Assembly: GCF_004010195.1 (NCBI RefSeq)
Contig: NC_057719.1
Span: 23,794,313 to 23,832,118 of the forward strand
Reading direction: 5' to 3'
Source: Chiloscyllium plagiosum
Taxonomy: Eukaryota
DNA length: 37,806 nt
The notes under the pieces are model-generated. The model saw only the letters and a program-made list of their open reading frames with translations. It searched no databases and had not been told where the DNA came from. Below are positions 7,178 to 34,974 of the stretch, in pieces. Made by a program: the position numbers and the translations under genes. Within the stretch, counting starts at the first letter, position 1. Each line of letters begins with the position of its first letter.

Positions 7178-7500
7178 AGATTAGATTCACTACAGTGTAG
7201 AAACAGGCCCTTCAGCCCAACAAGTCCACACTGACCCTCCGAAAAGCAACCCACCCAGACCCATTCCCCTACATTCACCCCTGGCTAATACACCTAACAC
7301 CACGGCAATTATCATGGCCAATTCACCTAACCTGCACATCTTTGGACTGTGGGAGGAAACCAGACCACCTGGAGGAAACCCACACAGACACAGGGAGAAT
7401 GTGCAAACTCCACACAGACAGTTGCCCGAGGTGGGAATTAAACCCTGGTCCCTGGCGCTCTGAGGCAGCAGTGCTAACCACTGAGCCACCATGCTGCCCC
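7178..7500 (-). mobile_element. HE1-type SINE inserted in the LTR element
   Basis: Minus strand starts GGGGCAGCATGGTGGCTCAGTGGTTAGCACTGCTGCCTCA (A box) and ends GAAGGGCCTGTTTCTACACTGTAGTGAATCTAATCT; same family as 19192 and 35103. Confidence 0.92.
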
Positions 7501-8871: not shown

Positions 8872-10145
8872 GGAGATAGATAGAAATAAACTGGGATGTA
8901 CTAATTGTGCATGATGTAGATATAGGAGATACTGTTCTGATTAAGCAAAATCTTTACAGGCATAACCCTCTAAACTTGGCACAGGTTCAGGAGGAGATAG
9001 GTCGCATGCTCCGAGATGGCATAATCAGAGCTCACTGTCATGGTGCCAAAGCCAGATGGCACCCAACCGTTATGTGTGGACTATAGCAATGTAAACGCCG
9101 TTACACAGACTGATGCATATCCAATTCCACGGTTGAAGGAATGTGTTGAAAAGGTGGGACAAGCAACTTACGTTTCTAAGTTGGACTTGCTCAGAGGCAA
9201 CTGAGAAGTACCTCTGTCAGAGAGAGCAAAGGCAATTTCAGCTTTCGTATCGCCAGATGGACTATGTCAGTTCAAAGTCATGCCATTTGGTATGAAAAAT
9301 ACCCCAGCCACTTTTCAGTGACTGACTAATAAGGTCATTGCCAGATTACCCAACTGTGTGGTGGATATTGATGACTTGGTGATTTTTAGTCACTTGTGGA
9401 AGGAACATTTACAACATTTATCACACTTGTTTGATTGACTTGAGAAAGCAGGCTTGGTGGTAAACCTAGCTAAAAGTGAATTTGCCAAAACTCAAGTCAT
9501 CTTCCTGGGCCATGTTATTGGACATGGACAAATGGCTCCATGGGATTTGAAAACGAAAGTAATTGGGCCCACACCATCAACAAACAGTTCCTGGGATTGA
9601 GTGGGTTTTACTGGAAGTTTGTGCCAAACTTTAGCAGCGTGGCTGCTCCACTCACCGAATTATTAAAAAAGGGCAAGAAGTTTCAGTGGACAGCGGACTG
9701 TTAAAAGGCATTTAACAGCCTAAAACCTGTGTTAACCACTGACCCAGTATTAGTCACACTGGGTTACACAAAACCTTTCAAGGTGGCTATCGACGCCAGT
9801 GATGTGGGTGTTGGTGCGGTGCTCCTGCAGGAAGATGACAAGGGGACAGAAAGACTCATCAGGTATTTTTCAGCAAGTTGAACATTCATCAACAGAAATA
9901 TTCAGTGGTGGAGAAAGAGACTTTAAGCTTGGTGTTGGCATGACAACATTTCAGTGTTTATATTATCAGCAATGCATCTGAGACAATCATATACATTGAT
10001 CATAACCTATTGACATTTGTGGAAAGGTTTCAGGACAAAAATGCCAGACTGTTAGATGGAGTTTGTTGTTGCAGCCATTCAATTTGACAATTGTGCATGT
10101 GACAGGTTGTGAAAACATGATTGCTGATGCGTTATTGAGACCTGA
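8872..10145 (+). pseudogene. Reverse transcriptase and RNase H remnant
   Basis: VPKPDGTQPLCVDY, DAYPIPR, VSKLDLLRG, VMPFGMKN, VDIDD (YIDD mutated, ~9361), FLGLSGFY; RNase H IDASDVGVGAVL, EKE, DHN, ADAL; stops and frameshifts present. Confidence 0.9.
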
Positions 10146-10289
10146 ATTTGCATGTAATTGTGCAGGTTAGCGTGTTTATAGTTAGTCTTATATATATGTG
10201 TGATAAGACTATTAACCAGGTTTTTGAAGGGTTTTAAAAATGAAGCCATCTGTTTAGTATTGATGGTTCATTTTTCTTTCGGGAGGAGG

Positions 10290-10935
10290 TGCCACAAAGC
10301 TGGTTCTATTCTTTCTAAAAGCTGTTCCTTTTCTCAAGGATACTATGTCCTTGGGTTTTCTTCAGAAGGGTTGTGAACACTCCCAGTGCCAATTAGACAG
10401 CTTTGGTACAGAGATTAAAGGGTATTGAGAGGTCTTTTTGTTTATATATAAACAGGTGAGACTTCAGGCCAAAGTGGTCATATTTTAGAAGTGACCTGTA
10501 TTACAAAAGAGGAGTGGTCAGCTCTCTAGCTGAGCAGTTCTGTCCAGAACTAGTTGGGAGTTTAACAGTGGGCTGCATGAAGACAAACTTTCTCTCTCCT
10601 TATGCCCTTATAATTTCAACCAGTAGTTGACGTGTGTTCCATTTTTTTACTGTGTCTTCAGGGTGTTTGCTTATTGGGACTGTTGTGTATGTTCAGAACA
10701 GCAAAATTAAGTCTAGTTTGGATAGACTGAGTTCTGTAGGGGTTCTTTATTCTGTCCTTTATGTTTCATTGTGTAATTTTGTGAATAATTTTTTGTCTGT
10801 TTTAAAATGTGGTAGTCAACCTCACTCACTTAATCTGGGTAATTTTCTCTGTACACTTACCAAAGCAAATTGCAAAGTAATGGTCTGGGTTGCCTGTTGA
10901 AGAATGATTTGAGTGATCTGGCCTAGTCCATAACA
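10290..10935 (+). repeat. 3' LTR
   Basis: TGCCACAAAGCTGG...CCATAACA; has ~25 bp near 10337-10362 that the 5' LTR lacks. Confidence 0.93.
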
Positions 10936-13829: not shown

Positions 13830-14183
13830 AAAGGGGACATTTTCAGAACTGATACTTAGGGTAGTGCCACAGTGTCACAGAAATCTGTCTGGGGACATAA
13901 TTATTTAGTATATGCATTAATGGCTTGGATGGCAGAAATGAATGTACTACTGGCAAATATACAAATGATACAAATAGGTGGGAAGGCAAATAATGACCAT
14001 GGCACAATTGCATCACAGAGGTATATAGATAGGTTGAATGAGTGGGCAAAGACTTGGCAGATGGAATATAATGTGAGTATTTTTGCAGGGAGGAAAGAAA
14101 AGCTGAATATCACTTAAATGGAGAAAGACTGCGGAAGGCTGCAGTACAGAAGGAATGGAGGTGCTTGTGAATGAATCATACAA
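13830..14183 (+). repeat. Local direct duplicate of 17014-17373 (decayed CR1 RT segment)
   Basis: Near-identical ~355 bp; ORFs 13901-14113(-) and 17085-17303(-) translate almost identically. Confidence 0.92.
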
Positions 14184-14248
14184 CAAGAGCATGATCTTAT
14201 AGTCCTTATTGGGGCACGTTTATAACAAGATCACAGTAGACAATGAAA

Positions 14249-14410: not shown

Positions 14411-14432
14411 GTATGAGGTATGTGATTTTTCA

Positions 14433-14654
14433 GAGCTGAAAATGTGTTGCTGGAAAAGCGCAGCAGGTCAGGCAGCATCCAAGGAGCAGGAGAATCGACG
14501 TTTCGGGCATGAGCCCTTCTTCAGGATTCCTGAAGAAGGGCTCATGCCCGAAACGTCGATTCTCCTGCTCCTTGGATGCTGCCGGACCTGCTGTGCTTTT
14601 CCAGCAACACATTTTCAGCTCTGATCTCCAGCATCTGCAGTCCTCACTTTCTCC
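14433..14654 (+). mobile_element. Palindromic Penelope-derived mini-element with hammerhead-like cores
   Basis: Arms 14430-14526 and 14528-14624 (97 bp, 2 mismatches, 1-nt loop); unpaired ~30-nt tail; perfect 14-bp TSD TATGTGATTTTTCA at 14419-14432 and 14655-14668. Confidence 0.9.
14530..14557 (+). ncRNA. Minimal hammerhead-ribozyme-like core, mirrored on the - strand at ~14497-14524
   Basis: CTGAAGA-A-GGGC-TCAT-GCCC-GAAA-C-GTC: catalytic boxes, 4-bp stem II and a palindromic ACGT in place of stem III, as in Penelope-like-element minimal hammerheads. Stem I pairing is weak. Confidence 0.65.
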
Positions 14655-14968
14655 TATGTGATTTTTCAATAGGACCATCAGGAAGGGAAGAGTACTGAGA
14701 TAGCTTTGTTATTCCAAGTAAGTGGAATAAGTAAGAAATCAAATCTTAGATAATTTGATGTGAACAAACTTTGGGTGGAGACAATAAGTAACAAGTGGAA
14801 GAAGATACTGATAGGTGTAGTCTATAGGTTCCTTAACAGAAGCTGTTCTGTAGCCTAAACAATACATCTTGAGGTAATGAGTGAATTTTAAAAAGGCAGT
14901 ATATCAGTCATTGGTGATTTAAATCATCATTTAGATTGGGAAAATTAAATTGGCTGAGATAGTCAGTC

Positions 14969-15197
14969 CTGGAAATGTGTTGCTGGAAAAGCGCAGCAGG
15001 TTAGGCAGCATCCAGGGAACAGGAGAATCGACGTTTCGGGCATAAGCCCTTCTTCAGTAAACTTTCCCCATTCCTGAAGAAGGGCTTATGCCCGAAACGT
15101 CGATTCTCCTGTTCCCTGGATGCTGCCTGACCTGCTGCGCTTTTCCAGCAACACATTTCCAGCTCTGATCTCCAGCATCTGCAGACCTCACTTTCTC
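14969..15197 (+). mobile_element. Palindromic Penelope-derived mini-element with hammerhead-like cores
   Basis: Arms 14969-15057 and 15074-15162 (89 bp, 1 mismatch, 16-nt loop); core CTGAAGAAGGGCTTATGCCCGAAACGTC at 15074; perfect 15-bp TSD CTGAGATAGTCAGTC at 14954-14968 and 15198-15212. Confidence 0.9.
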
Positions 15198-15574
15198 CTG
15201 AGATAGTCAGTCGGCAACAATAAAAATAATCAAATAAAAATACAGGGTTACAGAAACTGGAGACCTGAAATAGAAACAGAAAGTGCTAAAGAAACACTGC
15301 ACATTGAGTAGCATCTGCAGAGAGCAAAAAGAGTTAATGTTTCAAGTCCAGGACAGCTTCATAGAACAAGTTGTTTTGGTCAGAACCAGGGCTCCTGCTA
15401 TTTTAGATTAGGTAATGTGTGATGCGACAGTTTAATAAATTATCCCAGAATAAGAGACCCCCGAGGGAACATTGACCATAGCTTTTAGAATTTAGCATTC
15501 GGTTTGAGAATGAGAAATGTGGGTTGAAACAGCTATGCTAAATATAAGAAAGGTTACTTAAATAGAATAAAGGG

Positions 15575-15760
15575 AGGTGATGGCTTAGTGCTATTATCGC
15601 TGGTCTGTTAATTTAGAGATCCAGCTAATGCTCTGGCATAGAGTGGCATTTGAATCATTAATTTTTTTAAAAACTGGAATTAAGCGTTTAATGGTGACCG
15701 TGAATCCATTGTCAGTAGTCGAGAAACCCTTCACTAATGTCATTTGGGGAGGAAACTGCG
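15575..15760 (+). mobile_element. LF-SINE-like 5' fragment
   Basis: GGTGATGGCTTAGTGCTATT...CTGGAATTAAG...TAATGGTGACCGTGAA...TTCACTAATGTCATTTGGGGAGGAAACTGC resembles 690-890. Confidence 0.5.
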
Positions 15761-15955
15761 GCTAAGTTGGTTGAAGTGAACTGGGAAAAGAGTTGAGCAG
15801 AAAAAAATAGTTGAGGAACAATGGGAGATGTTTAACAAATAGATCATGACTCACAACTAGGTTATAGCCCAGTGAGGAAAAAAACATTTCTCAGAAAGAG
15901 ATAAACCAACAATGGTTAACCAGGGAAGCTAAGGATAGTCTCACGTTGAAAGAAA

Positions 15956-16151
15956 CTAGGCAAAAATGAGGACTGCAGATGCTGGAAACCAGAGTCTAGA
16001 TTAGAGTGGTGCTGGAAAAGCACAGCAGGTCGGGCAGCGTCTGAGGAGCAGGAGCAGTCCTGATGAAGGGCTTTTGCCCAAAACGTCGATTTTCCTGCTC
16101 CACGGATGCTGCCTGAACTGCTGTGCTTTCCCAGCACCACTCTAGTCTGGA
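15956..16151 (-). mobile_element. Asymmetric palindromic Penelope-derived mini-element
   Basis: Tail at the left; inverted arms; hammerhead-like core on one arm only (CTGATGAAGGGCTTTTGCCCAAAACGTC, ~16060); 16-bp TSD CTCA(C/G)GTTGAAAGAAA at 15940-15955 and 16152-16167. Confidence 0.85.
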
Positions 16152-18629
16152 CTCAGGTTGAAAGAAAGAGTGTGGTAAAGATTAATGGCAATCACAGGTT
16201 TGGAAAAGGTTTACAAACCAACAAAAGATGAGCAAATAAACTAATTAAGAGGAAGAAAATAAAAGGGTAAACTAACAAGTGATACAAAAATGGACAGAAA
16301 GAACATCTTTAAATATATTAAAAGGAAGAGAGAGGTCAAAGTGAATGTGGATCCCTTAGAAATGAAGCTGAGGAAATTATGGAGAAGCAAGAATTGGGAA
16401 ATGTTTTGAAAAAAATACTTCACATCAGTAAAGGACATTAATAGCATTTCAAAAATACAAAACTTCAAGGGGCCCAAGGAGGAAAGAAATAAACACAATA
16501 ACTCTTATTAGAGAAAAAGCCTTAGTGAAACTCCCTTTAAAGGCTGATACATTCCCTAGAACTGATGGGTTGCATCATAATTTTTTAAAAGAATGTAGCT
16601 ACAGCGATAGTGGGTGAGCTAGTAATAATCTTCCAAGAATCCTTAAATCAGGAAAAGTCCCAGAGGATTGGAAAACTGTTAATATAATAGCCTTATTGAA
16701 AATGGAAGGGAGAGAAAATGTAACTCTCAGCTAGTTTGTTAACATCTGTCATTGAGCAAATGCTCGAATCTATTAACTCCATGATTCCATGGAGATAAAA
16801 TCAAACCTGACAAATTTATTACAGTTCATTGAGAAAGTAACTATCAGGGTAACCAATAGATAGATAAAGAGGAAGCAGTAGATAGGATATATTTGGATTT
16901 CCAAAGATACCACACTTAAATCTATTTAATAAGATAAGAGCCCATGGTGTTGGGGTTAGTAAAATAGCTTGGATAAAGGATTGGCTAACTAATCAAAGAC
17001 AGAGAGTTAGGTAAAAGAGGACATTTTCAGAACTGATACTTAGCGTAGTGCCGCATTGTCACAGAAATCAGTCTGGGGACACAATTATTTAGTATATATA
17101 TATATATTAATGGTTTGGATGGCAGAAATGAATGTACTATTGGCAAGTATATAAATGATACAAATAGGTGGGAAGGCAAATAATGACCATGGCACAATTA
17201 CGTCACAGAGGTATATAGATAGGTTGAGTGAGTGGGCAAAGACTTGGCAGATGGAATATAATGTGAGTATTTTGGCAGGAAGGAAAGAAAAGCTGAATAT
17301 CACTTAAATGGACAAAGACCACGGTAGGCTGCAGTACAGAAGGAATGGAGGTGCTTGCGAATGAATCATACAAAGTGAGCATCCAAGTTCAGCAAGTTGT
17401 AGGTAAGACAAATAGATTGCTGGTCTGTATTTCAAAAGTATTATTGAATAGCAATGGCTGAATGACTTACTTCTGCTATTACCTCTTATTGCCTTACATT
17501 CTTTTATCATCTCTTTTATTTGTGTTGTGGCATTTGTGGGTGACAAAGAAGTGCCGTGACGTCATCGATACCTTTTTTATATTTCATGCATTTTCTGAGA
17601 AGAAAGATGATAGAATATAATGAGACAATATAATGACATCTGGACATCTTGGTATAGCAAGCGGTATTTTCCAGTATTTCTGTAGTTTGTTTTGCGAGCA
17701 TTTTAATAGATTGGACCAGTCGGCGAACCTTTATAAACTCGTTTTTTAAAAAAGAAGACCAGCTCTGGCCTCTGTCCTTTTAAAAGGGTGGAAGTACTCT
17801 CAGATTTTTTTTCTCTCTCTGGTTTCCGCTCTATTGATGTTACCATGCTTCAGTATGGGCTGTGGTTTTTGGTTGTAGCTTGACGACTAACTTCAGCTCT
17901 GATCTCAGGCAGTCGATTAGAAGTTGTCAGTTAAAATACCACTGCTCCTAACACATTTCAGCCTTTACTACCGCTAACTAGCTGTCACTATTAACTTCTA
18001 GTGCCCATGTACTGTTACAAAGACTTGGTTTCTCGGGTAAAATACCACTGCCAATGTGATATCTGCTGAGTGCTGCCAGACATGTTAGCTCATATAATAA
18101 ATACCAAAATTTTGGTTTCTTGTTGACACAGATGTCTTAAAGTTTATTAAAACACTAACTACTTACATTGCTATAATATTGCACTTACATATATTCAAGA
18201 TTTGATTCTTATTGACGTCATTGTACACAACATGCACATAATATACTCAATAAATACATCACACTGACCCTGTTTCAACCATGGTTAAATGTTATATACC
18301 TTGATATCATGCCTTCAAAGTGCATTGCCTATCTGGTCAAGAATCTGCAATTACACAACATCTATTCCCTCAAATATACGGCTATCCATTAAAATTAAAA
18401 CCAGCAGTATGAGCTTTTATATTTTCTGACTTATTGTTGCAAGTAATCAATTCAATCTTTATGTCCATCTGAAGTTTATCCTTGTGCATTTCAACAAAAT
18501 GTACAAATAATTTCTGGAAATCTTGTTTTACCCAATACAGGCTAAAATATAGCTAACATTATCAATCTCAAAAAGAACATAAAGTTTTATATCACTTATT
18601 TCAAAATCTGGTGTCTGATAATATTTGAT

Positions 18630-18835
18630 GTGGAGACTCTGGTGTTGGACTGGGGTATACAAAGTTAAAAATCACACAACACCAGGTTATAGTCCAACAG
18701 GTTTATTTGGAAGCACTAGCTTTCAGAGCGCTGCTCCTTCATCAGGTAGTTGTGCCCACAACCACCTGATGAAGGAGCAGTGCTTCAAAAGCCAGCGCTT
18801 CCAAATAAACCTGTTGGACTATAACCTGGTGTTTG
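18630..18835 (-). mobile_element. Palindromic mini-element of a second Penelope-like family
   Basis: Inverted arms AACACCAGGTTATAGTCCAACAGGTTTATTTGGAAGC...CTTCATCAGGT / ACCTGATGAAG...GCTTCCAAATAAACCTGTTGGACTATAACCTGGTGTT; - strand core CTGATGA-A-GGAGC-AGC-GCTCT-GAAA-GCTA; possible decayed 14-bp TSD (11/14). Confidence 0.75.
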
Positions 18836-19019
18836 TTATTATATTTCATTATGAAAGATTGATTATTAATATTTAAAGTCTATATTGTGCCTGGCTTCCT
18901 AAAAGGATTAATCATGAGAGAGGGAGAAATACAAAAAGAAGTTGAAATGTAAAAGAAAGAAAAAATTGTTTATCATGACAACCTAATTTCTCACTATGGT
19001 TTAAACCCAGAGAAATATG

Positions 19020-19172
19020 TCTTGTAGGAAATGTTGTAGGCAATTTTCTAAGAGCAAACTACCACAAACAGCAATGCAATATTGACCAGATAATTTATTT
19101 ATATGGTATAGATTGACCAGAACACTAGGGCTGGCTTCCCTGCTGAACTCTAAAAATAGCGTCATGATATCT
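19020..19172 (-). mobile_element. Deu-domain SINE fragment
   Basis: CCACAAACAGCAATGCAATATTGACCAGATAAT is the reverse complement of the Deu-domain ATTATCTGGTCA...CATTGCTGTTTGTGG. Confidence 0.55.
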
Positions 19173-19191
19173 GGGCTAAAAACACAATAAA

Positions 19192-19504
19192 GGGCGGCAC
19201 GGTGGCACAGTGGCTAGAACTGATGCCTCACAGCGCCAGAGACCCAGGTTCAATTCCTGCCTCACGCAACTGTCTGTGTGGAGTTTGCACATTCTCCCCG
19301 TGTCTGTGCGGGTTTCCTCCGGGTGTCCGGTTTCCTCCCACAGTCAAAAAATGTGCAGGTTAGGTGAATTGGCCATGCTAAATTGCCCGTAGTGTTAAGT
19401 GAAGGGGTAATTGTGGGGGAATGGGTCTGGATGCATTGCTCTTCGGAGGGTCGGTGTGGACTTGTTGGGCCGAAGGGCCTGTTTCCACACTGTAAGTAAT
19501 CTAA
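19192..19504 (+). mobile_element. HE1-type SINE
   Basis: GGGCGGCACGGTGGCACAGTGG (A box), GGTTCAATTCC (B box), central GGAGTTTGCACATTCTCCCCGTG, LINE-like tail GGGCCGAAGGGCCTGTTTCCACACTGTAAGTAATCT. Confidence 0.93.
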
Positions 19505-22500
19505 AAGTGAATAAAGCATGACAAATATTATGTTTGAAAGTATGTATTAAGAATAGTAATTAAAAACTGCGAGCAAAATAATTCATAATATCTATTGAAA
19601 TCCCATGTTTTATTTTCTGGAATAAAATTAACCAAAGTAGCAATCTAGGTTACAATATGAAAGATGTTAAAATATTTCACCAGACATAATGTTTGCAAAC
19701 TTTAAAAAAAGTTCCACAACCATAGCTTATAGTTATTATTGTAATACAGGAGACCTAAACATTATTGTAGTTGCATAGCTTCAATCACATTTCCAAAATT
19801 AATTTGGTTACGTCATGCTAAGAAAATGAAAATGTTTTTCATTTTAGTCCTTTAAGGATTGTCATAGTTTTAAATATATTAGAAACAATTTCAAAAGTAT
19901 TTCACTCTAATTTCATTCCTACCCAAAGACTGGTTTTATAGATAAATATCAATTCTTTGGTGAATCCTAAGAGATTGTCTCTGAAGAATATAATTAGAAT
20001 GAATTTGGAATTGAAAGCTCAACATAACCATTATCATATATTATATTCCCCATGATGAATTAGTAACACTGGAAGCTCATTACTGCTCAATTGTCTGAAC
20101 AAGTGATAAACATTTATGATAAACAAAAAGCACAATAGCCAAACAGGGAGTTCTTAATGCTTATTAAACTCTTTAAGAATTTACATTTTACTACTTAAGT
20201 CTCATGCAAAATCAAAGTTATCACAAAGACAATAATTACTAACAAAGAAAATTGTATTACCAAGAAAGAAAGCAAAGCACTGACATAACACAATAGGAGA
20301 CCTTTGTGTAAACAGTACAGAAATATTATTTGATATTAGGAAGCAAGGCAAATATAGATTTCAAATTGTAAAAGTCAGTCTTTCATAATGAGTCAAATAT
20401 TATCAGATATTAAATTTTGAAATAAGTGACAAAGGACATTTTTCTGTCCTTTTTTGTAATTGATAAGTCAGTTACCTCAATGGCTGTAATAGGTAAAATA
20501 TTCACCGTAATAGAACATGTAAATCATTCTGTGCAAAAAAATGTTACAATTTTACTGTCCATGGATAATTTATATAGTCATGACCAATTTCAGCTTGAAC
20601 CACCTTGAAATAGCTGTTTGACATATATATTTTAGAAACCCTCATCAATACTGAATGTATATCCACACAAATAAATCACTGAAAGGGATTTTTGTTCCAA
20701 CAAAATATGTATTTATTTAGGAGTGCTTAATGAAATTCATTCAGCTAAAAGGGATTTATATGTCTATTTTTCAACCACTATTTGTACATTTTACTTCTCG
20801 AGCAAATATATTAATTGGGTCAAAATCCTCTCATGGTCTGTATGCTACAGTAAATTAAATTCTATACAAATGCAGTAAATTTGATCTATTAGTTCTTGCA
20901 CTGACAGATATACACATTGTGTGAAAATTGCATAATACTGTCATCTGCTGACCACTGTAAGCAATACTTTGCAACAATATTATTTCTCAGAAAGCAGTTA
21001 TCTCTAGTGCACAGTGCCCCCTGGTGTAACCTTTTAGCAATGAACACAAAAAATTTAAACTCTCTTCCCTTGTCAGTTTCATGTCTTTTCAATTCCCACA
21101 GGTTCCACAAGCATCTCTGAGCAACTACTGCTGGAGGGGCTTACAGGTCTCTGAGAGTAGGGAACCCACTTTAAGTGGGCACCATCATGTGATTCATTCA
21201 GACCTTACACCATTTCAGTGGGGTCACAAAGACAAAGGCACAAAGACATATGGTGAAGCATGTTGTATGACGTAGTTTTTTTCCAAGAATTAATGCTGAA
21301 GACTGCATTAAGCTCCACCTAATCTGATGACAGGTTAAGGACTTAGGCAGGGAAAGCCAGAAAATCTTCACATATCGAAGACTACAATCTTGCCATCCTA
21401 TGTCTCCCAAAAGTTTTCTAAGAATGTCTTTATTTTCATCGTGCAAGAAGCTACATCTTGTTTAAGACAACAGCCTGTTCTCATTTGAGTACATTGTGGT
21501 ATTACTCTAACACTTCAGACCAGATAGATCTTGCAGACCCAGTCAGAAAAGGAAGATAGTGGGGACTATCTACCCAACTTATGGTGGCAGTGTATAATCA
21601 CGTGATAAAACTCACATCACTGGTGAGCAAGATCAGGTGCTGGAGGCAGGAATAGCAGTGGAGACTCCTTATTGCAGAAGATAGGCATCTCCAAGCTCTG
21701 CTCAGCTAAACACATCAACAAAGGAATAATCTGGAAGAACGGTCAGATTCTGTTTTTCCAGCCATACTGCACACATTTGGAGATGGATTGAAGGAGTCCA
21801 ACTCTAGCATGAGGGCCATGATATCTTAGACTTTCACAGTGATGTCTAACATCCATGAAAAGGGTGGTCACCTGCATATAGTATCCAGCTGAGTAGTCAA
21901 ATGACTGCACAGGGACCTACACCTATAGCTTACACTCAGAAGGCAGAACCTTATGCCCTCCACAGTCATTTTCTTTTGGTTTGGGGGGCATTTAATTCGG
22001 CAAGAAAGTAATGGGCGAGGATTTCATTATGTTCCCACCTCCACTCCAATTAAATACATGGTGGGATGACCCACAGACTACCTTCCCACTGCAACACCAA
22101 TAAGTACTTTCAGTGGACCATTAACGATGTGTAAGTGATTCGTTCCACTTAAACTAGTATTGACCCAATGGTGGGCAGGGGGCTTGCCAGTGAATGATAT
22201 TCCCTTATTCACAGGCACTCAATATCTGGCATTGGGAAGGATGATGAAGTGAAAACCATCCTCCTGCCTATGACTCCAGCCTCCCTCCAGGCAACAAAAC
22301 CCTCACTCCCCCACTCACCATCATTCTTCTGTGCCTGTGCCTTTACATCCACTTACCGCCTTCCCCTCCCCACCCCCACCCCAGCCCCAGCCCCAGCCCA
22401 AATCCACCACTCTACTGATCTGAGGGCTTTGGTGGTTGTAGTACCAGCACTGGCTCCTTGGTGATGCTAAAGAGCTGCTGGCTACTGATAGGGGAGCGTA

Positions 22501-22736
22501 GGAGCATCAGGAGGCAACCAGGAACCTGGCAGCATGAGGGTTCCTGCTATTTTATTCTATTTACGCTAACACTATTACTAGCACAGTTAGATCTACAAAT
22601 CTTCTCAAAACTCACTAACAGTTAGTTACTTCTTAATATTACTTATTGGGAGTTTCTACACATACACTCTTAGAGACTTCGAGTTCCTTATCTGAGAATA
22701 TCACTCTTTCCAAGACTACAACACACTTCATTTTTA

Positions 22737-22973
22737 TGTTGCAATAACTGCACAGAGGCTGGTATCTCGTCACCAATTCACCCTTTCTTTACTTTTATAC
22801 ATTATACTGGCAATGGCCAGCCAGCTCCGAATCAGTCCACTGAATTGACGAGATTCTACATCCACTGTTAATTTTTTTTCTCTCCCCTATTAATATTGGT
22901 CATCCAGAGCTTCCAGGTTGGCTCCAATCAAGAATCTCATATCAATTAGATCAACCTGATTCCAATCGCTATG
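22737..22973 (-). mobile_element. Possible solo LTR (Gypsy-like)
   Basis: Starts TGTTGCAATAACTGCAC; resembles from memory a shark LTR family (CACCAATTCACCCTTT...CCAATCAAGAATCTCATAT); no clear TSD. Confidence 0.35.
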
Positions 22974-24409
22974 TATGTATATAGTATTTACATACATACA
23001 TAAATACAGCTCTCCAGTACAACATCTAAGGCCTCTCCCTTTATAAGCTGCTTCCAGTCTGAACTCACAGTAACATCATCAGTTACATCATCATTATGTG
23101 CCCATTCAGTATACCTGTAGCCTTTTACTTAACTGCCACAATGTCTGAAACCTCCACTCTGGGCTCTTTGCTGGGGAAAGCCTTCTGATGATCTGCTAAA
23201 TGCCTGAGTAGCAGAAGACATGGAAAGAGGTGACACAAGTGGATCCTGCTGCTTGTCCAGTTCGTAGCCAAAGATCCCTATTGTCACTGCAAGATTTTGC
23301 CATGAGGCTTCCCTTTTAACTAGGATGAAATAAAAAATGTCTTTGACCATTCAGCGTTCTCTTGGGTCTCAGTAGCAGGAAATTGCCGGTAGGCCTTTGG
23401 ACTTATACTGAAATGGGGTTGATGGAATCAGGGGCTCTACTGAAAGAATGTGCTCCAATTTTGCATTCCCCCTTTTCCAAGGCAGAGTATAGTACACTGC
23501 CTTTTGTTCTGATGGTCATAGCAACACTCCTGCATTAATGCAGGTGGTGTGATCTTTGCTGGGGCCCACATGTCTTATGCAGAATCTTAAAATGGGGCGA
23601 TGCCAATTGGGTTAGATGAAAAGGAATGAGAGGAAGATCTTCTGGGTCATTAGCAGTGACATAAACATTTTGAGCCTCGTGACCTGTAGCTGGTCTGTAA
23701 CATCTATATAATTCTATCCAATGCATTGCACAGACAGGAGTAGAATTGAGTTTTAGGACCCAAATTGTGAGAGCAACAGGAGGCAAGGGAGAGCAGGCCA
23801 ACTGCAATTAGAAACACTTGGGTAGTAGCCCAGAGAGCACTCGAGATGAAACCTAATTATCTGTTTTCATTACATAAGTTAAGTTGAATGTGGATTAGGA
23901 ACAACTTTAGCTTGTTTATTCTTTTAAGAGGACAGAAGCGTTAAACCTGATTTCCGATTTCAGTTAAATTGAGCTTCGATTGTTTAGCTGCAGGCACAAA
24001 ATTGTCTGTTGTGTTAAAGTAAGCTATTGCATATGTAGACAATTCCTAATGACAATTAAATAGTCCCTGAATGTTAAATATTCTCTGCGCATTACAAGGA
24101 ATGTGTGGCAGCCAAAACAGATGAAAGGCTTAGGGAGGATGAAAATGGAAACTGCAACAATTATCGTGAAGGGATGTGATCCAAAGTGGCACTGAAGTTT
24201 TCTGAGGAGTGGAAATCTCATGCAGCTCCACATTTTGGAGAGGAGATTATGATCAGGTCTCCCTCAGCAATATGGAGCCATGCTTCCATTCAGATAGTTC
24301 TGACTTAGTGCAGAGGAAACCACACACCCCTTTCCCTGCAGTTAGCTGCCATATTCTGAAATTTAGCAGTCCTCACAGTGACTGCTGACAAATGGCAACT
24401 ATGATCTTC

Positions 24410-25060
24410 AGGTGCTAGATAGGTAAAGGGGAATAGAGTGCCAGACAAGTAGGGCACCAGTTAGGTAGAGTGCCAGAGTACCAAGTAAGTAGGATGCCAG
24501 GTGACTAGGGATTATAGTTCCTGGTTGGAGGACCTTTGATAACCACGGTATAAGCTGGTTAGGATGTCAGCTGGGGAATCATAGGTAGCCAGGGGTAGGA
24601 TGCTAGATGGATAGGGGCAAGTTACCATGTATGTAGAGCTCAGGTGGGTAGGGTTCCATCAGGGGGTTGGGTAGGATGCCAGTGTTGAGATACACGTTGA
24701 GAGACTTTGGGCTACTTATCTGAGAATATCACACCCTCCAGCACTACAACACACTTAATTTCTATGTCAAAAAGTGTGGCGCTGGAAAAGCACAGCAGGT
24801 CAGGCAACAACCAAGGAAGAGGAGAGTCAAGGTTTTGGGCATAAACATTGACTCTCCTGCTCTTCAGGTGCTGGTTGACCTGCTATGCTTTTCCAGCCCT
24901 ACACTTTTCAACTCTGACCTCCAGCATCTACTGTCCTCACTTTCTCCTACACTTTATTTCTATGTTAAATAGGCGTTGTTTAGCTGGTAATTATGTTGAG
25001 TTTGGTCTGGTGCTAGGTGAGTAGGATGCCAAGTGGGTAGGTCATGAGGATCTGAGGTAA
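24410..25060. repeat. Degenerate G-rich tandem-like repeat (GGTAGGATGCCAG motif), interrupted by the 24768 element
   Basis: Many imperfect copies of (G/A)GTAG(G/A)(A/G)TGCCA. Confidence 0.55.
24768..24948 (+). mobile_element. Older palindromic Penelope-derived mini-element lacking the CTGA box
   Basis: Diverged inverted arms; tail CTCCAGCATCTACTGTCCTCACTTTCTCC; 17-bp TSD ACACTT(A/T)ATTTCTATGT at 24751-24767 and 24949-24965. Confidence 0.85.
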
Positions 25061-25462
25061 CTTAGTGCAGTATTTACAGTAAATCGGGTTTGGGGGAGTT
25101 AGAACTGAACTGGGTCCAGCCCAATCAGGGTGCTGTAAGGAGATTAGGAAGGATGCACTTGGGAGATGACCTGATTAATTGGTCCTCAGTAGTTAGAAAA
25201 TGTACTTAATTGTTCAACGTTTCCTGAATAACTATTTTACTTAATTTCATTGGAACCCTCGGAAGGCTATAATTTAAATGGAGACTTTTGGAAGGCTCCA
25301 GGCATAGGGAAATTGCCCAGCAGAAAATTCAATTTCCTCAGCAATTCCTTTGGAGTATGCCATGATGAGGCTTTAGCAGAGATTTGCCTGATATATAACT
25401 CCAATCTATGTTGGCATAACAACTATCTGACCAGCAGAAAATGCCTGCTATTAAGATACAAT

Positions 25463-26248
25463 ATGTAAAATATTATGTGGACCCATGTAAGTATATCATT
25501 AACTTTTAAACAAAGGACACTTTGTTAAGGAAAATGGCACTGAGTATAAAAACAACAAATTTGCACATGTAAACAGCAGGTAGCTTCAATGGAGTCATTT
25601 AGTCTTTGACAGTTTTTATAAAGGTCACACCACCCAGCTTTGGATGAAATAGGACTATTTCATTTTCGAACTTGAGGAAAAAGAATTTTACTTCTTTCTT
25701 GTGATTCCTGTCAGCAATGTGCGTTAGCTGAAAATGGCGGTGGACTCTTGGAGAGAATTATTTGGAATCTAACCCATTCTCTTCCAATAAAGAAAATTTA
25801 ACCAGCTACAACTGTTTTAGGAACAATACCCTACTACCATTTGGGAAATCTGTGACTTATCCTTTGTTCATGATTTGCCTGTTATTTGACCAAAGTATTT
25901 CAAAATTAACTTTCTGTAGAGTTAATATTTTTTGTTTCTTCACATACCTTTGTGAGTAATAGATTGTTTTCAGAGTATATACATATGTGTAAAATTTGCA
26001 TAATGCAAACAGTTTGTCAATTGCCTTTGTATGTCTTATTGAGTAAGTTTGTTTTTGTAATGAATCAGTTGTTTGTTGTCAAATAAAGAAATCTGGTGGG
26101 CAAATTCTTCACATTAAACTTGACACAGTCTGAGACCAATATTATTGCCATATCACCAACCAAAGTTAAAATTTGTTATGGGCAGTGGCGGAATGGAACG
26201 AGAAAAGGAAATAGTGCACACTTCCAATCTCAATGGTCAGGCAATAAT
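25463..26248 (+). mobile_element. Possible old solo LTR
   Basis: TG start, AATAAA near 26082, and a 3' end (GTGCACACTTCC...GGTCA) resembling a remembered shark LTR terminus; boundaries uncertain. Confidence 0.25.
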
Positions 26249-26324
26249 GAATAATAGTTTACTGTTAACAAGTAACATGCTGTGAAGTTATCATAGACAT
26301 GCATTCCATAATAATTAACACTGG

Positions 26325-26760
26325 GCTACAGAAGGAGATATTTGAAATGTTGGTTAAAGGTTTGGGCAACAGGCACATTTTAAGGAGAGTTTTACATGAG
26401 AAGAAATTGCTGCAGAGCCAGAGGAGAGAGAGAGAGAAAGAGAGAGAATTTGAGACCTTAGGGCCATGACAACTAAAGATATGTCACCAATCATGACACA
26501 GAGTTGTTTGCAAATGCACAGGGGTCAGTTTGAAGAATGTAGAGTTCTCTGAGTATTGTGAGGTTAGTGATGGTTACAGAGATAGGGCCATTATAGGCTT
26601 GAGTGGGAGTTGATGCAGGATAGGATAAGGGCAACAGAATTTTGCCATGAACTGGTGTATGTCAAGGGGTGACACGAAGTTCAGCCAGAAACACATTGGA
26701 ACAATTGGGAACTGCACAGGCATGGATGACCATTTGAACAGCTCATGAGCTTGAATTAAA
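26325..26760 (-). mobile_element. Old L2-like LINE 3' region
   Basis: AAGGAGATATT...TTTTAAGGAG...GAGAGAATTTGAGACCTTAGGGCC...GGTTACAGAGATAGGG resembles an inverted L2 3' region (compare ~36150-36530). Confidence 0.45.
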
Positions 26761-26791
26761 GGTAGACACTCACCATGTGATGGTGTATGTC

Positions 26792-27019
26792 GAGACTGTG
26801 GTGCCGGAAAAGCACAGCAGGTCAGGCAGCATCCGAGGAGCAGGAGAGTCAACGTTTTAGGCATAAGCCCTTCATCAGGAATGAGGGGCTTATTCCTGAT
26901 GAGGGGCTTATGCCCGAAACATCGATTTTCCTGCTCCTCAGATGCTGCCTGACCTGCTGTGCTTTTCCAGCATTGCACTTTTGACTCAATCTCCAGCATC
27001 CACTGTCCTCACTTTCTCC
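26792..27019 (+). mobile_element. Palindromic Penelope-derived mini-element with hammerhead-like cores
   Basis: Centre CTTCATCAGGAATGAGGGGCTTATTCCTGATGAGGGGCTTATGCCCGAAACATC; 17-bp TSD ATGTGATG(G/A)TGTAT(G/A)TC at 26775-26791 and 27020-27036. Confidence 0.87.
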
Positions 27020-27200
27020 ATGTGATGATGTATATCTGTATTTATTGTGAGAGGATATGAAGGTGGAAGCCCAATTCAAAGTCAAACAGCTGCCAACAAC
27101 CTGGTTTAACCTGAGACAGTAGCTGTAGAAGGTACTGTAACATATGTTTACATAGTTTGTAAAAAGACCTAAATAAATTGGCTTTTGTTTATCCAATATG

Positions 27201-27419
27201 GATTAGAGTGGTGCTGGAAAAGCACAGCAGTTCAGGCAGCATCCGAGGAGTAGGTAAATCGATGTTTCAGACAAAAGCCCTTCGTATTCCTGGTGAAGGA
27301 CTTTTGCCCGAAACGTTGATTTTCCTGCTCCTCGGATGCTGCCTGAACTGCTGTGCTTTTGCAGCACCACTCTAATCCAGAATCTGGTTTCCAGCATCTG
27401 CAGTCATTGTTTTTACCTA
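27201..27419 (+). mobile_element. Palindromic Penelope-derived mini-element (same subfamily as 15956)
   Basis: Inverted arms GATTAGAGTGGTGCTG.../...CAGCACCACTCTAATC; mutated core CTGGTGAAGGACTTTTGCCCGAAACGTT; perfect 14-bp TSD GTTTATCCAATATG at 27187-27200 and 27420-27433. Confidence 0.88.
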
Positions 27420-29089
27420 GTTTATCCAATATGTACCGGACAGTATCATGGCAAAATTAATGTTCTAATGATCGCTGTTGAATTAAGTTAACATATAAAC
27501 TAAATAGAGTTAAGTGTCAAGAATCAATAAAGTAATGTACTGGAATTAGATATTAGGTGAAACGGGTAGCCAGTAAAATGAACATTCAGGTAGATGAAGG
27601 GTATGCATGTTACAGGAGTCACCATATTTGACACTTCCCCTGAATACAACAACAGATAAGAGACCTCACATTGCTGTGCATGTTACTTATTAGATATTAG
27701 TGTAGCTGCATGAGAAGATGGCACACTTTGAAGAAGCCTTGAAATTAAAGAATGAGGGACAATGCTACTATCGGGTAGATATGCCAAGGTTGCACTTCAT
27801 GTGGTATTGCCTTCAGTCCTAATGTTCATCTATGTTAAGACCCAGTACTAGTCAGCTATGAAATCACATATTTATACAAATATCTAACCTTCAGGATATC
27901 ATGCTCAAGATGTAATATATAATTGCCAAATTTACTTTTGCAGTATGCTGTTTCACCTTTGTGCATCTCACAGTATTTTTTTTCATTGTACAACAAGATA
28001 GCATATCAAAGACTCAATTGTAATCCAAAGAAATACCTCTATGTGAACTATAGATGTTGAGCACACATTTTTCAAGTATGCCATTGTAGCTCCAGTCATG
28101 TCTGAGGTTATTTAATTGGGCAATGGTGCAGTTTATCTCTGGTTCAGATAAGGATTTGGGGCCTGGAGGACTAGTTCCTCTGAGTGAATGATGAAAAAGA
28201 ATCTAGAAAAAGAATGGAATTGCATCATTTTATTTCTAACAATGCATGAAACTCAATGAAATAGATGCTGAGCAATTGTAGATCATGCTCATTCAGAAAC
28301 CAGATAAAAACGCATTTGAAAAATATGGTGCTGAAAGTTGTAAAGTGGATGTGTACCCACTTTATCAATGATAAGATTGAATTCATAAAAGTAAATAAAG
28401 AAAAATAGAAGGAAAGTACAAACTTACACGAATACAAAAATGTTTGATATTAGAGAAATGTGTGAAAAGCGTGTACGAAATGCACTTTCAGTGCTATATA
28501 GCCCTGGCACCTCAATCACTAAATTTTCTGCTCTCTCCCATTCCACCTTGTCCACTCATGAGACCCAGCACAAAGTTTCGATCACCATTCCAATAGCATA
28601 TGGTGGAAGTATTAGATGAGACACTAAAGTATGTATCTCCAAGTAAAATATATTTTTGTAGAATATGTTTACAAATAGACAGAAAGAGTTTGCATAAACT
28701 AGTGAGCAACAAAAATACAAAATAAAGAAGTTGAAATGTAGAAAACACCTGAAGAACAAAAAGGAAGAAACGGCACTGACCCAACAAACACAACAAATTG
28801 ATGAACATTTCAAGCAGACAACACAGACATAAAAAAGATGACAGTTATAAAGCACCAAACTTTTTTATTGGAGAAATAGATTGCACAATTTTAATAATAA
28901 CAAACTTTAATGCTTCTGACATGTGGATACTTTCAATTCAATTTCATTGATTGAGTTATCATCATTTAGATGTTTCTATATCTGGCTTACTTTCAACATA
29001 ATGTAGATAAACTATGTACATTACAACAGTGTCAAAATTCTCCTCAAGTTCTACAGCAGTCCATGCAACAAAATGTGTAGAATAGTCAA

Positions 29090-30382
29090 GCTTAGCTGAT
29101 AAATGCCAAGTAACATTCACACCACACAAGTTCCAGACAATGATCATCTCCTGCAAGAAAGAATCAAACTTTGACCCTTGATATTCAATAATATTATTAT
29201 CACTGAATCCCCCTCAATCAACATTCTGTGGGCTTCCTGTTGACAAGAAACTGAACTGGACTAAGCATGTAAATACTGTGTCTATAAAAGCAGGTCAGAG
29301 CTTGGAGATTTGATGATGTGTAACTGAAGAAAGAAATGGAGGCGAAAGAACTCAGAGAAATAACTATTGATGTTTTGAACAGAAGAGCAAGACTTAGAAA
29401 ACATAAAGGTGGATAAAGCTCCAGGACCTGCTCAAGAGTATCCCAAGACATTGTGGGAAGTTAGGGAAGAAATTGCAGTACCCCTAGTAAAAAATGTTTT
29501 GCATCCTCTACAACCACAGATGAGGTGCCATAGGACAAGAGTGTGGTTAATTTTATGTCTTTATTTATGAAAGGCTGCAAGGACAAGTCTGGGAACTGTA
29601 GACATGACATTAGTGGTGGGTAAGTTGTTGCAGATGATTCTGAAAGTTAGGATTTACATGCATGTGGAGAGACAAGGGATGATTAGGGATAGTCAGCATG
29701 GATGTGTGCGAGAGAAATCTTGTCTCACAAAATTGATTGAGCTTTTTGAGGAATTATTCAAATTGATTGAGGAGAACAAAGCAATATTCATTGTTTACAT
29801 GGACTTCAGTAAAGCTTTTGACAAGATTCCGCATGCTAGACTAATTAGTAAAGTTAGATCTATGGGATTCAGGGTGAGCTGACCAATTGGATACAAAATT
29901 GGCTTGACAGTAGGTGGCAGAGGGTTGCAGTGGAGGGTTGTTTTTCAGACTGGAGACCTGTCACCAGTGGTGTTCCACAGGGATCAGTACTGGATACATT
30001 TTTATTTGTATAAACAATTTGGATGAGAATATCAGAGGCATGGTTAGTAGGTTTGCGAATGACACCAAAATTGTCTGTCTGCCATCTACACAGCTCAGGA
30101 GTGTGATGGAATATTCTCCATTTCCCTGAATGACTGCAGCTCCAACAACACTCAGGAAGCTCAACATTATCTAGGACAAAGCAACACACTTGTCTATCAC
30201 CCCATCTAACAATGTGAACTTTTGCTCTCACCAGCACTGAGGCACAGTAGTAGCAGTGTGTAGTAAATATCACTTCAACAATTCACCAAGACACTGTAGA
30301 CAGCAGTCTCAAATGTGCAACTTCTACTGTCTCAGAGGACAAGGGCAGCAGCTGAAAACCACTACATGCAAGTTCCCCTCCT
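29090..30382 (+). mobile_element. Decayed CR1/L2-group LINE RT C-terminus, split by a CR1 fragment
   Basis: ADKCQVTFTPHKFQTMII, KLNWTKHVNTVSIKAGQSL at 29090-29310; resumes RSVMEYSP...AAPTTLRKLNII at 30072-30382. Confidence 0.7.
29385..30071 (+). mobile_element. CR1 (HER1-like) RT fragment
   Basis: ORF 29604-29882 (IRDSQHG..KSCLT, YMDFSKAFDKIPH); GVPQGSV; FANDTK; homologous to the 1715-3034 element. Confidence 0.9.
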
Positions 30383-30593: not shown

Positions 30594-31161
30594 ACACAAA
30601 ATAATTCCTCTTTATTTACCAAACGTGATTTAATTTAATTTGATTTACTTAATGTCAAGTGTATTTATTACAAATAGATCGAAAAGTGTTAATTAGTGTT
30701 GCCACTCTCCGACACCATCTTCAGACACAGAAAGTAAACCAAAACACAGAATGTAAAGCCAGGAATATAAAACAATAAAGTTCCTCTTACAGTCTGATCT
30801 CAATAAGGTTAAGGCTTCCTTGCAATAGCTCCTGCTTCAAGTTCAGCCATGGGCCTGGACTTGAGCTTCTCCATCCTGATGCCTTGAAGTCCCTCTGCTA
30901 AACTGATGACACTGCTGCACTTTACCACGTTACCACCACTAGATCAAAGAGTGACCACTCTCCGTGCCATCTTGCCTCCACTAACGCAACTGTGTTAGTT
31001 CACATTGGAACAACCTCACCAATGCAAGCTGCCAGTTCTGCAGGATCCTATACTGGAGCCAAACTCACTGCCATCAGGCACCAGGCCTAGCTGCAGACCT
31101 GGAGCCTCAGCTCAGCCTGTGAGTCTGGACTGGTGGGGAGGCAATTAAATCTGGGCAGTCC

Positions 31162-31745
31162 CAGTCCCCATCCCAATGCCCTACCTGACACGCAGACCCC
31201 ACCTCAATGCCCTGCCTGACACACAGTCTCCATCCCAATGCCCGATCTGACACGCAGTCCCCACCCCAATGCCCTGCCTGACACACAGTCTCCACCCCAA
31301 TGCCCTGCCTGACACACAGCCCCTACCCCAATGCCTTGCCTGACACACAGCCCCTACCCCAATGCCCTGCCTGACACACAGTCTCCACCCGAATGGCCTG
31401 CCTGACACACAGCCCCTACCCCAATGGCCTGCCTGACACACAGACACACAGTCCCCATCCCAATGCCCTGCTTGACGCGCAGTCCCCACCTCAATGCCCT
31501 GCCTGACACACAGATCCCACCTCAATGCCCTGCCTGACACACACAGTCCCTACCCCAATGCCCTGCCTGACACAAAGCCCCCATCCCAGTGCCCTGCCTG
31601 ACACATAGTTCCCACCTCAATTGCCTGCCTGACACACAGTCCCTACACCAAAGCCCTGCCTGACACACAGCCCCCATCCCAATGCCCCATCTGACATACG
31701 GCTCCGAACCCAATGTCCTGCGTGACACACAGTCCCAACCCAATA
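31162..31745. repeat. Minisatellite, 31-bp unit, about 18 copies
   Basis: Unit approximately CAGTCCCCACCCCAATGCCCTGCCTGACACA; first two units start at 31162 and 31193. Confidence 0.95.
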
Positions 31746-31983
31746 CCCCAACTGTTATTCCCCTCCCCTCCATGTTAGTGTCTTCCTAAGAGCCTCCAAG
31801 TCCCCATTCTGCAGATCCTCTGCTGTGGCCCAAGCCTCAATCTCAGTTAAATTGTTCATGTTATTTTGCTCTTTCAATCACAGACTACTACTCACCAACA
31901 TTTGCTTCTGATAGGTTCATTAGTGAACAGCTCCTTTCAAAATCTTCCACTCAAAACAACTCAGCGTATCACTCTTTAGCAGG

Positions 31984-33354
31984 GAGACTGCAGATCCTGG
32001 AGATCAGAGATGAAGAATGTGGTGCTTTAAAAGCAGAGCCAGTCAGGCAGCATCCGAGGAGCAGGACAATCAAAGTTTCGAACATAAGCTCTTCATCAGG
32101 AATAAGGGGGTGGCCCAAGGGGGCTAAGAGGTTAATGGGAGGGGGTGGGGCTGGAGGGAAGGTAGCTGGGAAGGTGATAGGTAGATGAAGGTGGAGGTGA
32201 GGGTGAAAGGTCAGAGAGGAGTGTGGAGCAGATAGGTGAGAAGGAAGATGGACAGGTAGGACAATAGGGCAGTGCCGAGTTGAAAGGTTGGATCTGGGAT
32301 AAGGTGGGTGGGGAGGGGAATTGAGGAAACTGGTGAAATCCACGTTGATCCCATGTGGTTGGTGGGTCCCAAGGCAGAAGATGAGGTATTCTTCCTCACG
32401 GCGTCGGGTGGCTAGAGTTTGGCGGTGGAGGAGGCCCAGGACTTGCATGTTCTTGGCGGAGTGGGAGGGGGAGTTAAAATGTTTGGCCACAGGGCGGTGA
32501 GTTTGTTTAGTGTGTGTGTCCCAGAGATGTTCTCTAAAACGTTCCGCAAGTTGGCGACCTGCGTCCTCAATGTAGAAGAGACCGCATCGTGAGCAACGGA
32601 CAGCAGATGACTGGAGACGTACAAGCAAATCTCTGTCGGATGGGGAAGGATCCTTTGGTGCCTTGGACAGAGGTGAGAGGGGAGGTGTGGGTGCAGATTT
32701 TGCACACCTTGCATTGAAAGGCGAAGGTGCTGGGAGTGGATGGCGAGTTGGTGGGGAGCGTGGACCAAACAAGGGAGTCGCAGAGGGAATGGTCTCTATG
32801 GAACGCATAAGGTGGGGAGGGAAGTATATCTCTGGTAGTGGGGTCTGTTTTTACGTGGCGGAAATGGCGGAGAATGATACGGTGTATCCGGGAGTTGTGG
32901 GGTTGAAGGTCCTTGTTGCAATTGGAGGTGCGGGGTTAAAGGCGGAGGTGCGGGAAGTGGAAGAGAAGTGTTGGAGGGCATCATTGACCATGCGGGAGGG
33001 AATATTGCTGTCTTTGAAGAAGGAGGCCATCTGGGATGGTCTATGATGGAATTGGTCCTCCTGGTGTAGTGGAGGCGGAGGAATTAGAATTAAAGGATAG
33101 CATTTTTACAGGAGGCAGGATGGGTGGAGGTGGGTTCGAAGTAGATGTCCGTGTTGAATCGGTTTCCAGAAATGGAGATGGAAGAGGAGGGAGGTGTCCG
33201 AGATGGTCCAGGTGAACTTGAGGTCGGGGTGGAACGTGTTTGCGAAGTTGATGAACTGTTCAATCTCCTCATGGCACTACGAGGTGGCACCGATACAGTC
33301 GTCGATGTAACAGAGGAGAAGGTGGGGAATAGTGCTGGTGTGCAGATGGACTGT
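31984..33354 (-). mobile_element. 5'-truncated Penelope-like element: RT remnant, GIY-YIG endonuclease and 3' terminus with hammerhead-like core
   Basis: ORF 31969-32808(-): RCSRCGLFYIE...LAERFREH...PVAKHFN...EEYLIFCLGT..PHGIN. RT YIDDCIG..EIEQFINFANTFHPDLKFTW at ~33200-33310. Terminal CTGATGAAGAGCTTATGTTCGAAAC. 11-bp TSD TCTTTAGCAGG at 31973-31983 and 33355-33365. Confidence 0.9.
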
Positions 33355-34850: not shown

Positions 34851-34951
34851 ACAAGATCAGAAATTGCTGGAAAAACTCAGCAAGTCAGGCAGCATATGTG
34901 GAGAGAAAGAAAAGCTAACCTTTCTGGTCCAATGACCTTTCTTCAGAATAA
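34851..34951 (-). mobile_element. 101-bp single-arm Penelope-derived insertion with a decayed hammerhead-like core
   Basis: Perfect 14-bp TSD ATTCTTCATTTGTA at 34837-34850 and 34952-34965; - strand begins TTATTCTGAAGAAAGGTCATTGGACCAGAAAGGTTA. Confidence 0.8.
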
Positions 34952-34974
34952 ATTCTTCATTTGTAGGTATCCTG

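Follow-up and report, generated by a model that had tools for sequence, protein, structure and literature searches.

A 37,806-nt stretch of the genome of the shark Chiloscyllium plagiosum (NCBI RefSeq assembly GCF_004010195.1, contig NC_057719.1, positions 23,794,313 to 23,832,118, forward strand; in the following called the window, with positions counted from its first letter) contains six short insertions, in each of which two inverted arms of the same sequence meet head to head between target-site duplications (TSDs). From the analysis of these copies and of a genome-wide sample, we conclude that such fold-back stubs are very probably formed de novo by a Penelope-like element (PLE). More specifically, they are probably dead insertions of an endonuclease-containing (EN+) PLE, each built anew from two complementary DNAs (cDNAs) that arose on opposite strands of the target and were joined head to head. 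The full mechanism proposed below, including the run-off of both cDNAs at the start of the RNA, appears reasonably probable to us.

From the genome (3.56 Gb), 160 stretches of 10 kb were taken at even spacing, 1.55 Mb in total when N is not counted, and searched with a profile built from 21 long copies. This yielded 363 matches and 249 elements bearing the unit shared by all arms; leaving out 11 at stretch edges and 45 with less than 82% identity or short 3′ ends, we kept 193 elements, consisting of 85 fold-backs and 108 solo copies. Element positions are numbered from the first C of the hammerhead motif CUGANGA, taken as 0. Fold-backs with both arms starting after −20, called minis below, occur 71 times in the sample, which corresponds to 46 per Mb, about 150,000 genome-wide or about one per 22 kb. 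TSD-defined fold-backs measure 113–245 nt in 42 of 44 cases. In the 52 inserts with a measured TSD, its length was most often 15 bp (17 inserts), followed by 14 bp (12), 16 bp (11), 13 bp (6), 12 bp (3) and single cases of 11, 17 and 20 bp. A TSD score of 11 was reached by 37 of 69 real fold-backs in the genome sample and by none of 400 shuffled flank pairs.

The original prediction had offered a separate, retrozyme-like family as one source of these insertions, which the census does not support: fold-backs were found in all ten subfamilies and body-bearing copies in nine of them (seven if tail-bearing copies alone are counted), the junctions between the arms are of 52 distinct types in 56, and long fold-backs with arms of up to about 900 nt (L222, L224, L230) keep the identical layout. 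Four junction types recur, at least one of which (L151:7340/L184:9692) spans two subfamilies and has a built-in microhomology. It is therefore unlikely that the stubs are copied whole as a unit. Stubs outnumber body-bearing copies about 4 to 1.

The arms share a sharp 5′ boundary. Among 278 arm 5′ ends, 82 lie at −9 to −1 with a peak at −4/−3, only 9 at −58 to −10, while 49 extend into the body of the element and 138 lie at 0 or beyond. Expressed per base at risk, ends occur at 0.071 within this wall versus 0.003–0.005 just upstream (calculated before seven body copies were reassigned), and the wall applies to solos as well as to fold-backs. The non-random clustering of breakpoints, first claimed for the six window copies, thus holds genome-wide. 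The wall position −4 is the A of an initiator (Inr)-like sequence, TCATTCC. We ruled out two causes of the wall. The predicted hammerhead cut, after +27, is about 30 nt downstream of the wall, which lies at the far 5′ edge of stem I, where −4 pairs with +31, and therefore self-cleavage does not create the wall. In D. virilis, an intron ends at the 5′ end of helix I (PMC4209133); here, the upstream sequences have no AG before −4, including positions −6/−5, so that splicing does not explain the wall either.

At the other side, arm 3′ ends fall into two classes, at about +88 to +92 and at +123 to +126, roughly 35 nt apart, and arms are accordingly called tailless or tailed. The two classes are paired within the minis: 66 of the 71 combine one tailed with one tailless arm, one has two tailed arms, two have none and two could not be classified (chi-square test against independent choice, P = 3e-13). 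The 108 solos divide into 55 tailed and 51 tailless copies. Both outer junctions show more microhomology (at least 1 nt shared by target and element) than a two-sided chance model predicts: 34 of the 43 junctions at the tail have it (null 0.42, P = 9e-7), as do 20 of the 28 at the tailless end (null 0.45, P = 0.005). Which arm extends further 5′ varies among the 38 copies defined by TSDs: it is the tailless one in 15 and the tailed one in 14, with nine ties. The arms of one copy resemble each other, differing at 24 of 476 diagnostic sites in 48 young copies versus 25% after shuffling. Ranked by distance in 48 copies of all ages, a copy's own arm was the closest in 12, which is not informative. 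A short self-primed patch lies between the arms in L126:1627-1836 and in L182 (4821 region, listed as L182:4993-5235).

The unit derives from a coding element of which the window itself holds a broken, 5′-truncated copy on the minus strand (31980–33350), with remnants of a reverse transcriptase (RT) thumb and a GIY-YIG endonuclease and a C-rich 3′ untranslated region (UTR). This copy is closed by a hammerhead-plus-tail unit (32106–31980, minus strand) matching that of the six insertions, and many of its relatives are present in the genome. The earlier derivation of the insertions from a PLE pseudo-long terminal repeat (pLTR) with a minimal hammerhead and a tail is thus borne out, as the unit forms the 3′ end of coding copies. 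In one of 20 loci fetched for this question, L267, the unit (+45 to +127) continues into a leader and the N-terminus of an open reading frame (ORF); as it also ends long copies, it is a pLTR located at both ends of the transcript. Its presence ahead of the ORF as well as at the 3′ end, the inverted copies and the optional tail of 30–40 nt are the features of a PLE pLTR.

For the class of the parent we used relatives. A search of Pfam with the three broken Penelope frames of the window gave no relevant match, and of four pieces derived from relatives, one, P0001 (the natural frame of L239), matched GIY-YIG (PF01541; E = 7.8e-05, 23.3 bits versus a cut-off of 22.6). The region upstream of this domain is presumably the RT-thumb. 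P0001 has two cysteines between GIY and YIG, IIYCIRCTRCGLLYIGET, and histidines downstream, together a CCHH motif, and its linker between RT and endonuclease reads CNRKKCKTC, that is CX4CxxC, which fits CX2-5CxxC. According to PMC8557442, the CCHH motif with two cysteines between GIY and YIG defines EN+ PLEs, and the CX2-5CxxC linker is present in Neptune and Nematis and absent from Penelope/Poseidon. By its endonuclease and linker motifs, the predicted protein identifies the parent as an EN+ PLE of the Neptune/Nematis type.

Further features of the element were seen in individual copies. At the end of the tail stand CTCAC, a pyrimidine tract and TAG (window 14640–14656; L267:525-600), similar in appearance to a branch point with a 3′ splice site shortly ahead of the likely ATG; a donor was not identified. 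L081:2137-2708 is a partial tandem, in which a first unit extends about 145 nt beyond the tail into the leader and ORF start and then jumps to a second unit. In L152:4204-4459, a 53-bp piece of the Penelope ORF (profile −767 to −715) is repeated five times in tandem, as if by repeated template slippage. L073:9107-9335 carries an extra G on both arms.

Judged by its core and its paired stem II, the hammerhead of the unit is a predicted minimal type I ribozyme, for which self-cleavage after GUC is predicted. Across 131 copies, the stem II pairs 8:19, 9:18, 10:17 and 11:16 are mostly G-C or C-G, with nine compensatory A-T changes at 9:18; the conservation of the core in these copies is partly circular, since the search pattern required it. 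Stem I is paired at −1:28 in 102, at −2:29 in 111 and at −4:31 in 112 of them, the pair −3:30 is U-U in 81 and U-A in 13, and the stem is absent from minimum-energy folds. Folding of the monomer is weak (z = 0.65 for window copy 1 and 0.07 for copy 2). Arm 5′ ends also show a small bump at +26 to +30 (15 of 278 versus 6.9 expected from the flanks, P = 0.005, with one double count and some doubtful parses), which may record RNA cleaved at the predicted site after +27.

We propose the following sequence of events. The unit from −4 to +125 closes long copies at their 3′ end and also makes up the leader that precedes the ORF. Transcription would begin at about −4, where stem I of the hammerhead has its 5′ edge. 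As the TSDs and the in vitro behavior of the Anolis enzyme suggest, the encoded protein would nick both target strands about 15 bp apart. Both resulting 3′ ends would then prime reverse transcription on one RNA, at about +124 for the tailed and about +89 for the tailless arm. Where the start sites of the leader copy are used, both cDNAs would run off the end of the RNA after 90–130 nt. Their ends would be joined via short homologies, trimming or short self-primed patches, as can partly be seen in the copies, and joining of this kind would make each junction different. Loss of one cDNA would leave a solo stub, and use of the 3′ copy of the start sites would give a long copy. The use of each start site once per copy fits two cDNAs made from one RNA.

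Several points weigh against this proposal. The transcription start at about −4 is a prediction from sequence; among the 20 loci, no full-length copy had a leader starting at −4, and L267 starts at +45. Of 27 arms that end at −4, 13 carry a G at −5 in place of the C of the source (P = 0.005), which is suggestive, as copying of a cap would give such an excess; several of the 13, e.g., in L010, L138, L003 and window copy 1, are possibly bases of the partner arm, the test pooled selected and evenly spaced loci, and an initial test with body copies mixed in gave 5 of 40 and no effect. Arm ends were located by local alignment, which leaves an uncertainty of a few bases, and at the score threshold of 11, TSDs shorter than 11 bp are invisible. 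The agreement between the arms of one copy is also compatible with two RNAs of one source or with later gene conversion, and in L182 the arms differ at a subfamily site. One recurring junction pair (L079, L151:9096) lies within a single subfamily. Finally, the enzyme modeled in vitro belongs to the Poseidon clade, while the element here has a Neptune/Nematis linker.

Four other explanations were weighed. Two primings might be retained, with the wall marking the point where the RT comes to a strong stop on the 3′ copy in a long transcript, either at the ribozyme or where the C-rich UTR begins. This is unlikely in our judgment, although the wall does fall where stem I has its 5′ edge and where the sequence turns C-rich, and the 49 of 278 ends that get past it then truncate at a low rate. 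RTs are expected to pause at the entry into a helix, here at about +31, and not after its unwinding, at −4. Moreover, the monomer folds weakly, and an RNA end is favored both by the surplus of G at −5 and by the placement of the unit in the leader. Of the RT stop combined with a template switch at the ribozyme, the other source originally envisaged, the stop fits less well with a wall at the far edge of stem I, and a single switch fails for 15 of 38 copies. Alternatively, the template could be a short non-autonomous RNA, transcribed from −4 of stubs with an internal promoter and mobilized in trans like a short interspersed element (SINE) or a monomeric retrozyme, with the hairpin built at insertion. 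The 4 to 1 excess of stubs and the one subfamily of ten without a body copy in the sample would agree with this, internal RT initiation would require no defined 3′ end (PMC11167929), and animal retrozymes derive from pLTRs (10.64898/2026.07.22.740005). It nevertheless seems rather improbable, because nine of ten subfamilies have body copies with matching diagnostic bases, which makes a stub-only lineage unnecessary; by eye, no head-to-tail array of the unit was evident in the matches from the 160 stretches, where pairs lying close together on one strand, for example L081, include body or leader sequence.

A third possibility, a single tail-primed cDNA that folds back and copies itself until about +89, where the endonuclease resolves it, would account for the one-sided tail and the identical arms, and −6 to +6 is indeed a small inverted repeat and some junctions (L126, L182) contain self-primed patches. 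A snap-back demands that the tailed arm reaches at least as far 5′ as the tailless one. In 15 of 38 copies it is the tailless arm that extends further, by at least 10 nt in 11 of them, and therefore a single snap-back from the tailed cDNA cannot give those; the microhomology at tailless junctions and the 51 tailless solos among 108 point to priming there, and many fold centers have loops of 0–2 nt, making this course of events improbable. That the hairpin itself is the mobile unit, copied whole from masters like a miniature inverted-repeat transposable element (MITE) or a circular retrozyme, is in our view highly improbable. The narrow size range, the uniform TSDs and the four recurring junction types could be read in this way; against it stand the 52 differing junction types of 56, the recurring type that crosses two subfamilies, the distribution of the six window copies over five subfamilies and the long fold-backs of the same layout. 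The one-sided tail, the varied junctions and TSDs of 11–20 bp with a mode of 15, which are not short and fixed, also differ from a MITE.

Returning to the two joined cDNAs, we tentatively view the approximately 150,000 hairpin stubs as the fossil record of one reaction, in which a dimeric enzyme, with the two start sites primed by one target strand each, would make two run-off (“strong-stop”) leader cDNAs from one capped RNA. If this were true, one mechanism would account for the inverted pLTR, for the one-sided tail and, as a jumped leader cDNA, for the pLTR itself, and the hammerhead would sit so as to clip off the capped first 31–32 nt.

All six inverted-arm insertions predicted for the window are present at their expected places, with arms of 66–98 nt that are 80–98% complementary, and each is flanked by TSDs of about 14–17 bp as claimed, three of them perfect and three with 1–2 mismatches. 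Copy 1 on the plus strand lies between perfect 14-bp TSDs (14419–14432 and 14655–14668). Its tailless inverted arm (14433–14525, minus strand) runs from +91 to about −2 and its tailed arm (14526–14654, plus strand) from −4 to +124, preceded by a G where the source has C; the minimal hammerhead occupies 14526–14561 (plus strand; predicted cut after 14557) and the tail about 14620–14654. Copy 2 (14954–15212, plus strand; perfect 15-bp TSDs at 14954–14968 and 15198–15212) consists of a tailless arm at 14969–15060 (+88 to −3) and a tailed arm at 15060–15197 (−14 to +123), and belongs to the same young subfamily as copy 1. Copy 3 (15940–16167, minus strand) has 16-bp TSDs with one mismatch (15940–15955 and 16152–16167), a tailed arm on the minus strand that starts only from +33 (16053–15956) and a tailless arm on the plus strand from −2 (16058–16151). 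For copy 4 (24751–24965, plus strand), a TSD of 17 bp with one mismatch can be extended to 21 bp with two (from 24751 and 24949); its arms start at +12 (tailless) and +21 (tailed) and lack the hammerhead core. Copy 5 (26770–27033, plus strand), with TSDs of 16–19 bp and 1–2 mismatches (26770–26788 and 27015–27033), has a tailless arm from about −8 and a tailed arm from about −7, both with decayed cores. Copy 6 (27187–27433, plus strand) has perfect 14-bp TSDs (27187–27200 and 27420–27433), a tailless arm from +5, a tailed arm from −5 and the core CUGGUGA.

The architecture attributed to all six therefore stands for TSDs and inverted arms, with copy 3 being reversed and carrying its tail on the left. 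A hammerhead core near the fold-back point is lacking in copy 4, which folds at +12/+21 and has lost the CUGANGA half from both arms, and intact cores on both strands are found only in copies 1 and 2, with substitutions in GAAA, GUC or CUGA in copies 3, 5 and 6. An Rfam search of the window returned no hammerhead match and only microRNA-hairpin matches below threshold. Six copies in 37.8 kb compare with a genome mean of 1.7 (Poisson P = 0.009), but the window was chosen for them. The expected formation of double-stranded RNA (dsRNA) hairpins is sound as a prediction, with calculated folding energies of −84 to −196 kcal/mol, provided that the copies are transcribed. This concerns annotation, as an intronic or read-through copy would form a dsRNA of 60–100 bp that could be mistaken for a microRNA precursor or a MITE.

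The window also contains other repeats, and no host exons were recognizable by eye in the translations of five stretches of the window. Copies 2 and 3 with their surroundings sit, as judged by eye, in debris of long interspersed elements (LINEs), and copies 1–3 are bracketed by a pair of duplicates of about 360 bp (13830–14192 and 17014–17382; 93% identical, 3.19 kb apart). LINE-type RT fragments (Pfam RVT_1) were found at 2207–3103 and 29571–29882, and remains of a Gypsy-type LTR retroelement at 4947–10909, with direct repeats 5.37 kb apart and a match to an integrase C-terminus. A 31-bp minisatellite (31095–31803) adjoins the Penelope copy at its tail. A fold-back at about 18625–18833 (arms 18678–18754 and 18757–18833) represents a second repeat family, which also bears a hammerhead but is unrelated to the first; this fold-back, not listed in the original prediction, has an extra tail on the left, and a clean TSD was not found for it. 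A third, related family left a solo copy of 101 nt in antisense orientation, flanked by a perfect TSD of 14 bp (34837–34965), which stops just upstream of its own CUGAAGA core, as if the same wall applied.

Among known systems, twin priming of L1 also uses a nick in the second strand to prime a second cDNA, resulting in a 5′ inversion joined by microhomology. There, the arms cover adjacent, largely non-overlapping parts of the RNA, whereas here the two arms are copies of one and the same 90 nt, begun at two fixed start sites. A full-text literature search, with Repbase, Dfam, supplements and most subscription papers outside it, gave no description of ORF-less fold-back stubs in sharks or of paired use of start sites. 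The layout as such, an inverted pLTR with a junction palindrome, a one-sided tail and a TSD, has been published (PMC3846280, PMC8557442, PMC8969392). Like the stubs, Pen2a_Av and other EN+ PLEs have a head-to-head inverted pLTR shorter than the direct one, a palindrome at the junction, a one-sided tail of 30–40 nt and a TSD around the whole insert (PMC3846280, PMC8557442). They differ in TSD length (8–10 bp in A. vaga, about 15 bp here), and the inserts described here are mostly ORF-less, number about 150,000 and share a sharp common 5′ wall. The palindromes were explained by self-priming on an antisense template (PMC3846280), against which our counts argue for most copies, and an EN-mediated resolution of the tail was proposed (PMC8557442).

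The closest experimental parallel is the Poseidon element PAc of Anolis, in which two internal RT start sites likewise bound the tail, with a hammerhead about 90–125 nt upstream (PMC11167929). Its enzyme, a predicted dimer, cuts and extends both strands, and insertion does not need hammerhead cleavage; in the sections of that study consulted here, no start site is paired with a strand within one insertion, and the strands showed no difference in start site. The ORF of PAc starts within stem II; in the element described here, the likely ATG is found beyond the tail (L267), and the clades differ. The origin of inverted pLTRs and one-sided tails is treated as an open question in PMC8557442 and PMC11167929. 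The stubs offer a countable record of PLE insertion, and the predictions derived from them, namely the pairing of strand and start site, the use of one RNA or two and the position of the RNA start, are testable in the existing in vitro system.

The hammerhead agrees with those of metazoan PLE pLTRs in CUGANGA, a 4-bp stem II, GAAA, a palindromic ACGU in place of stem III and a putative short stem I (PMC4209133); such minimal hammerheads show low activity. The non-LTR retrozymes of animals are likewise non-coding, related to pLTRs and equipped with a type I hammerhead (10.64898/2026.07.22.740005). They are defined there as head-to-tail tandem units, with palindromes unmentioned in the portions consulted, whereas the stubs join two units head to head and each such pair has its own TSD; this arrangement is shared by all six copies in the window, and no tandems were evident by eye in the 160 stretches. 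Compared with these systems, the feature is a very common variant of the published PLE layout and not a new mobile system.

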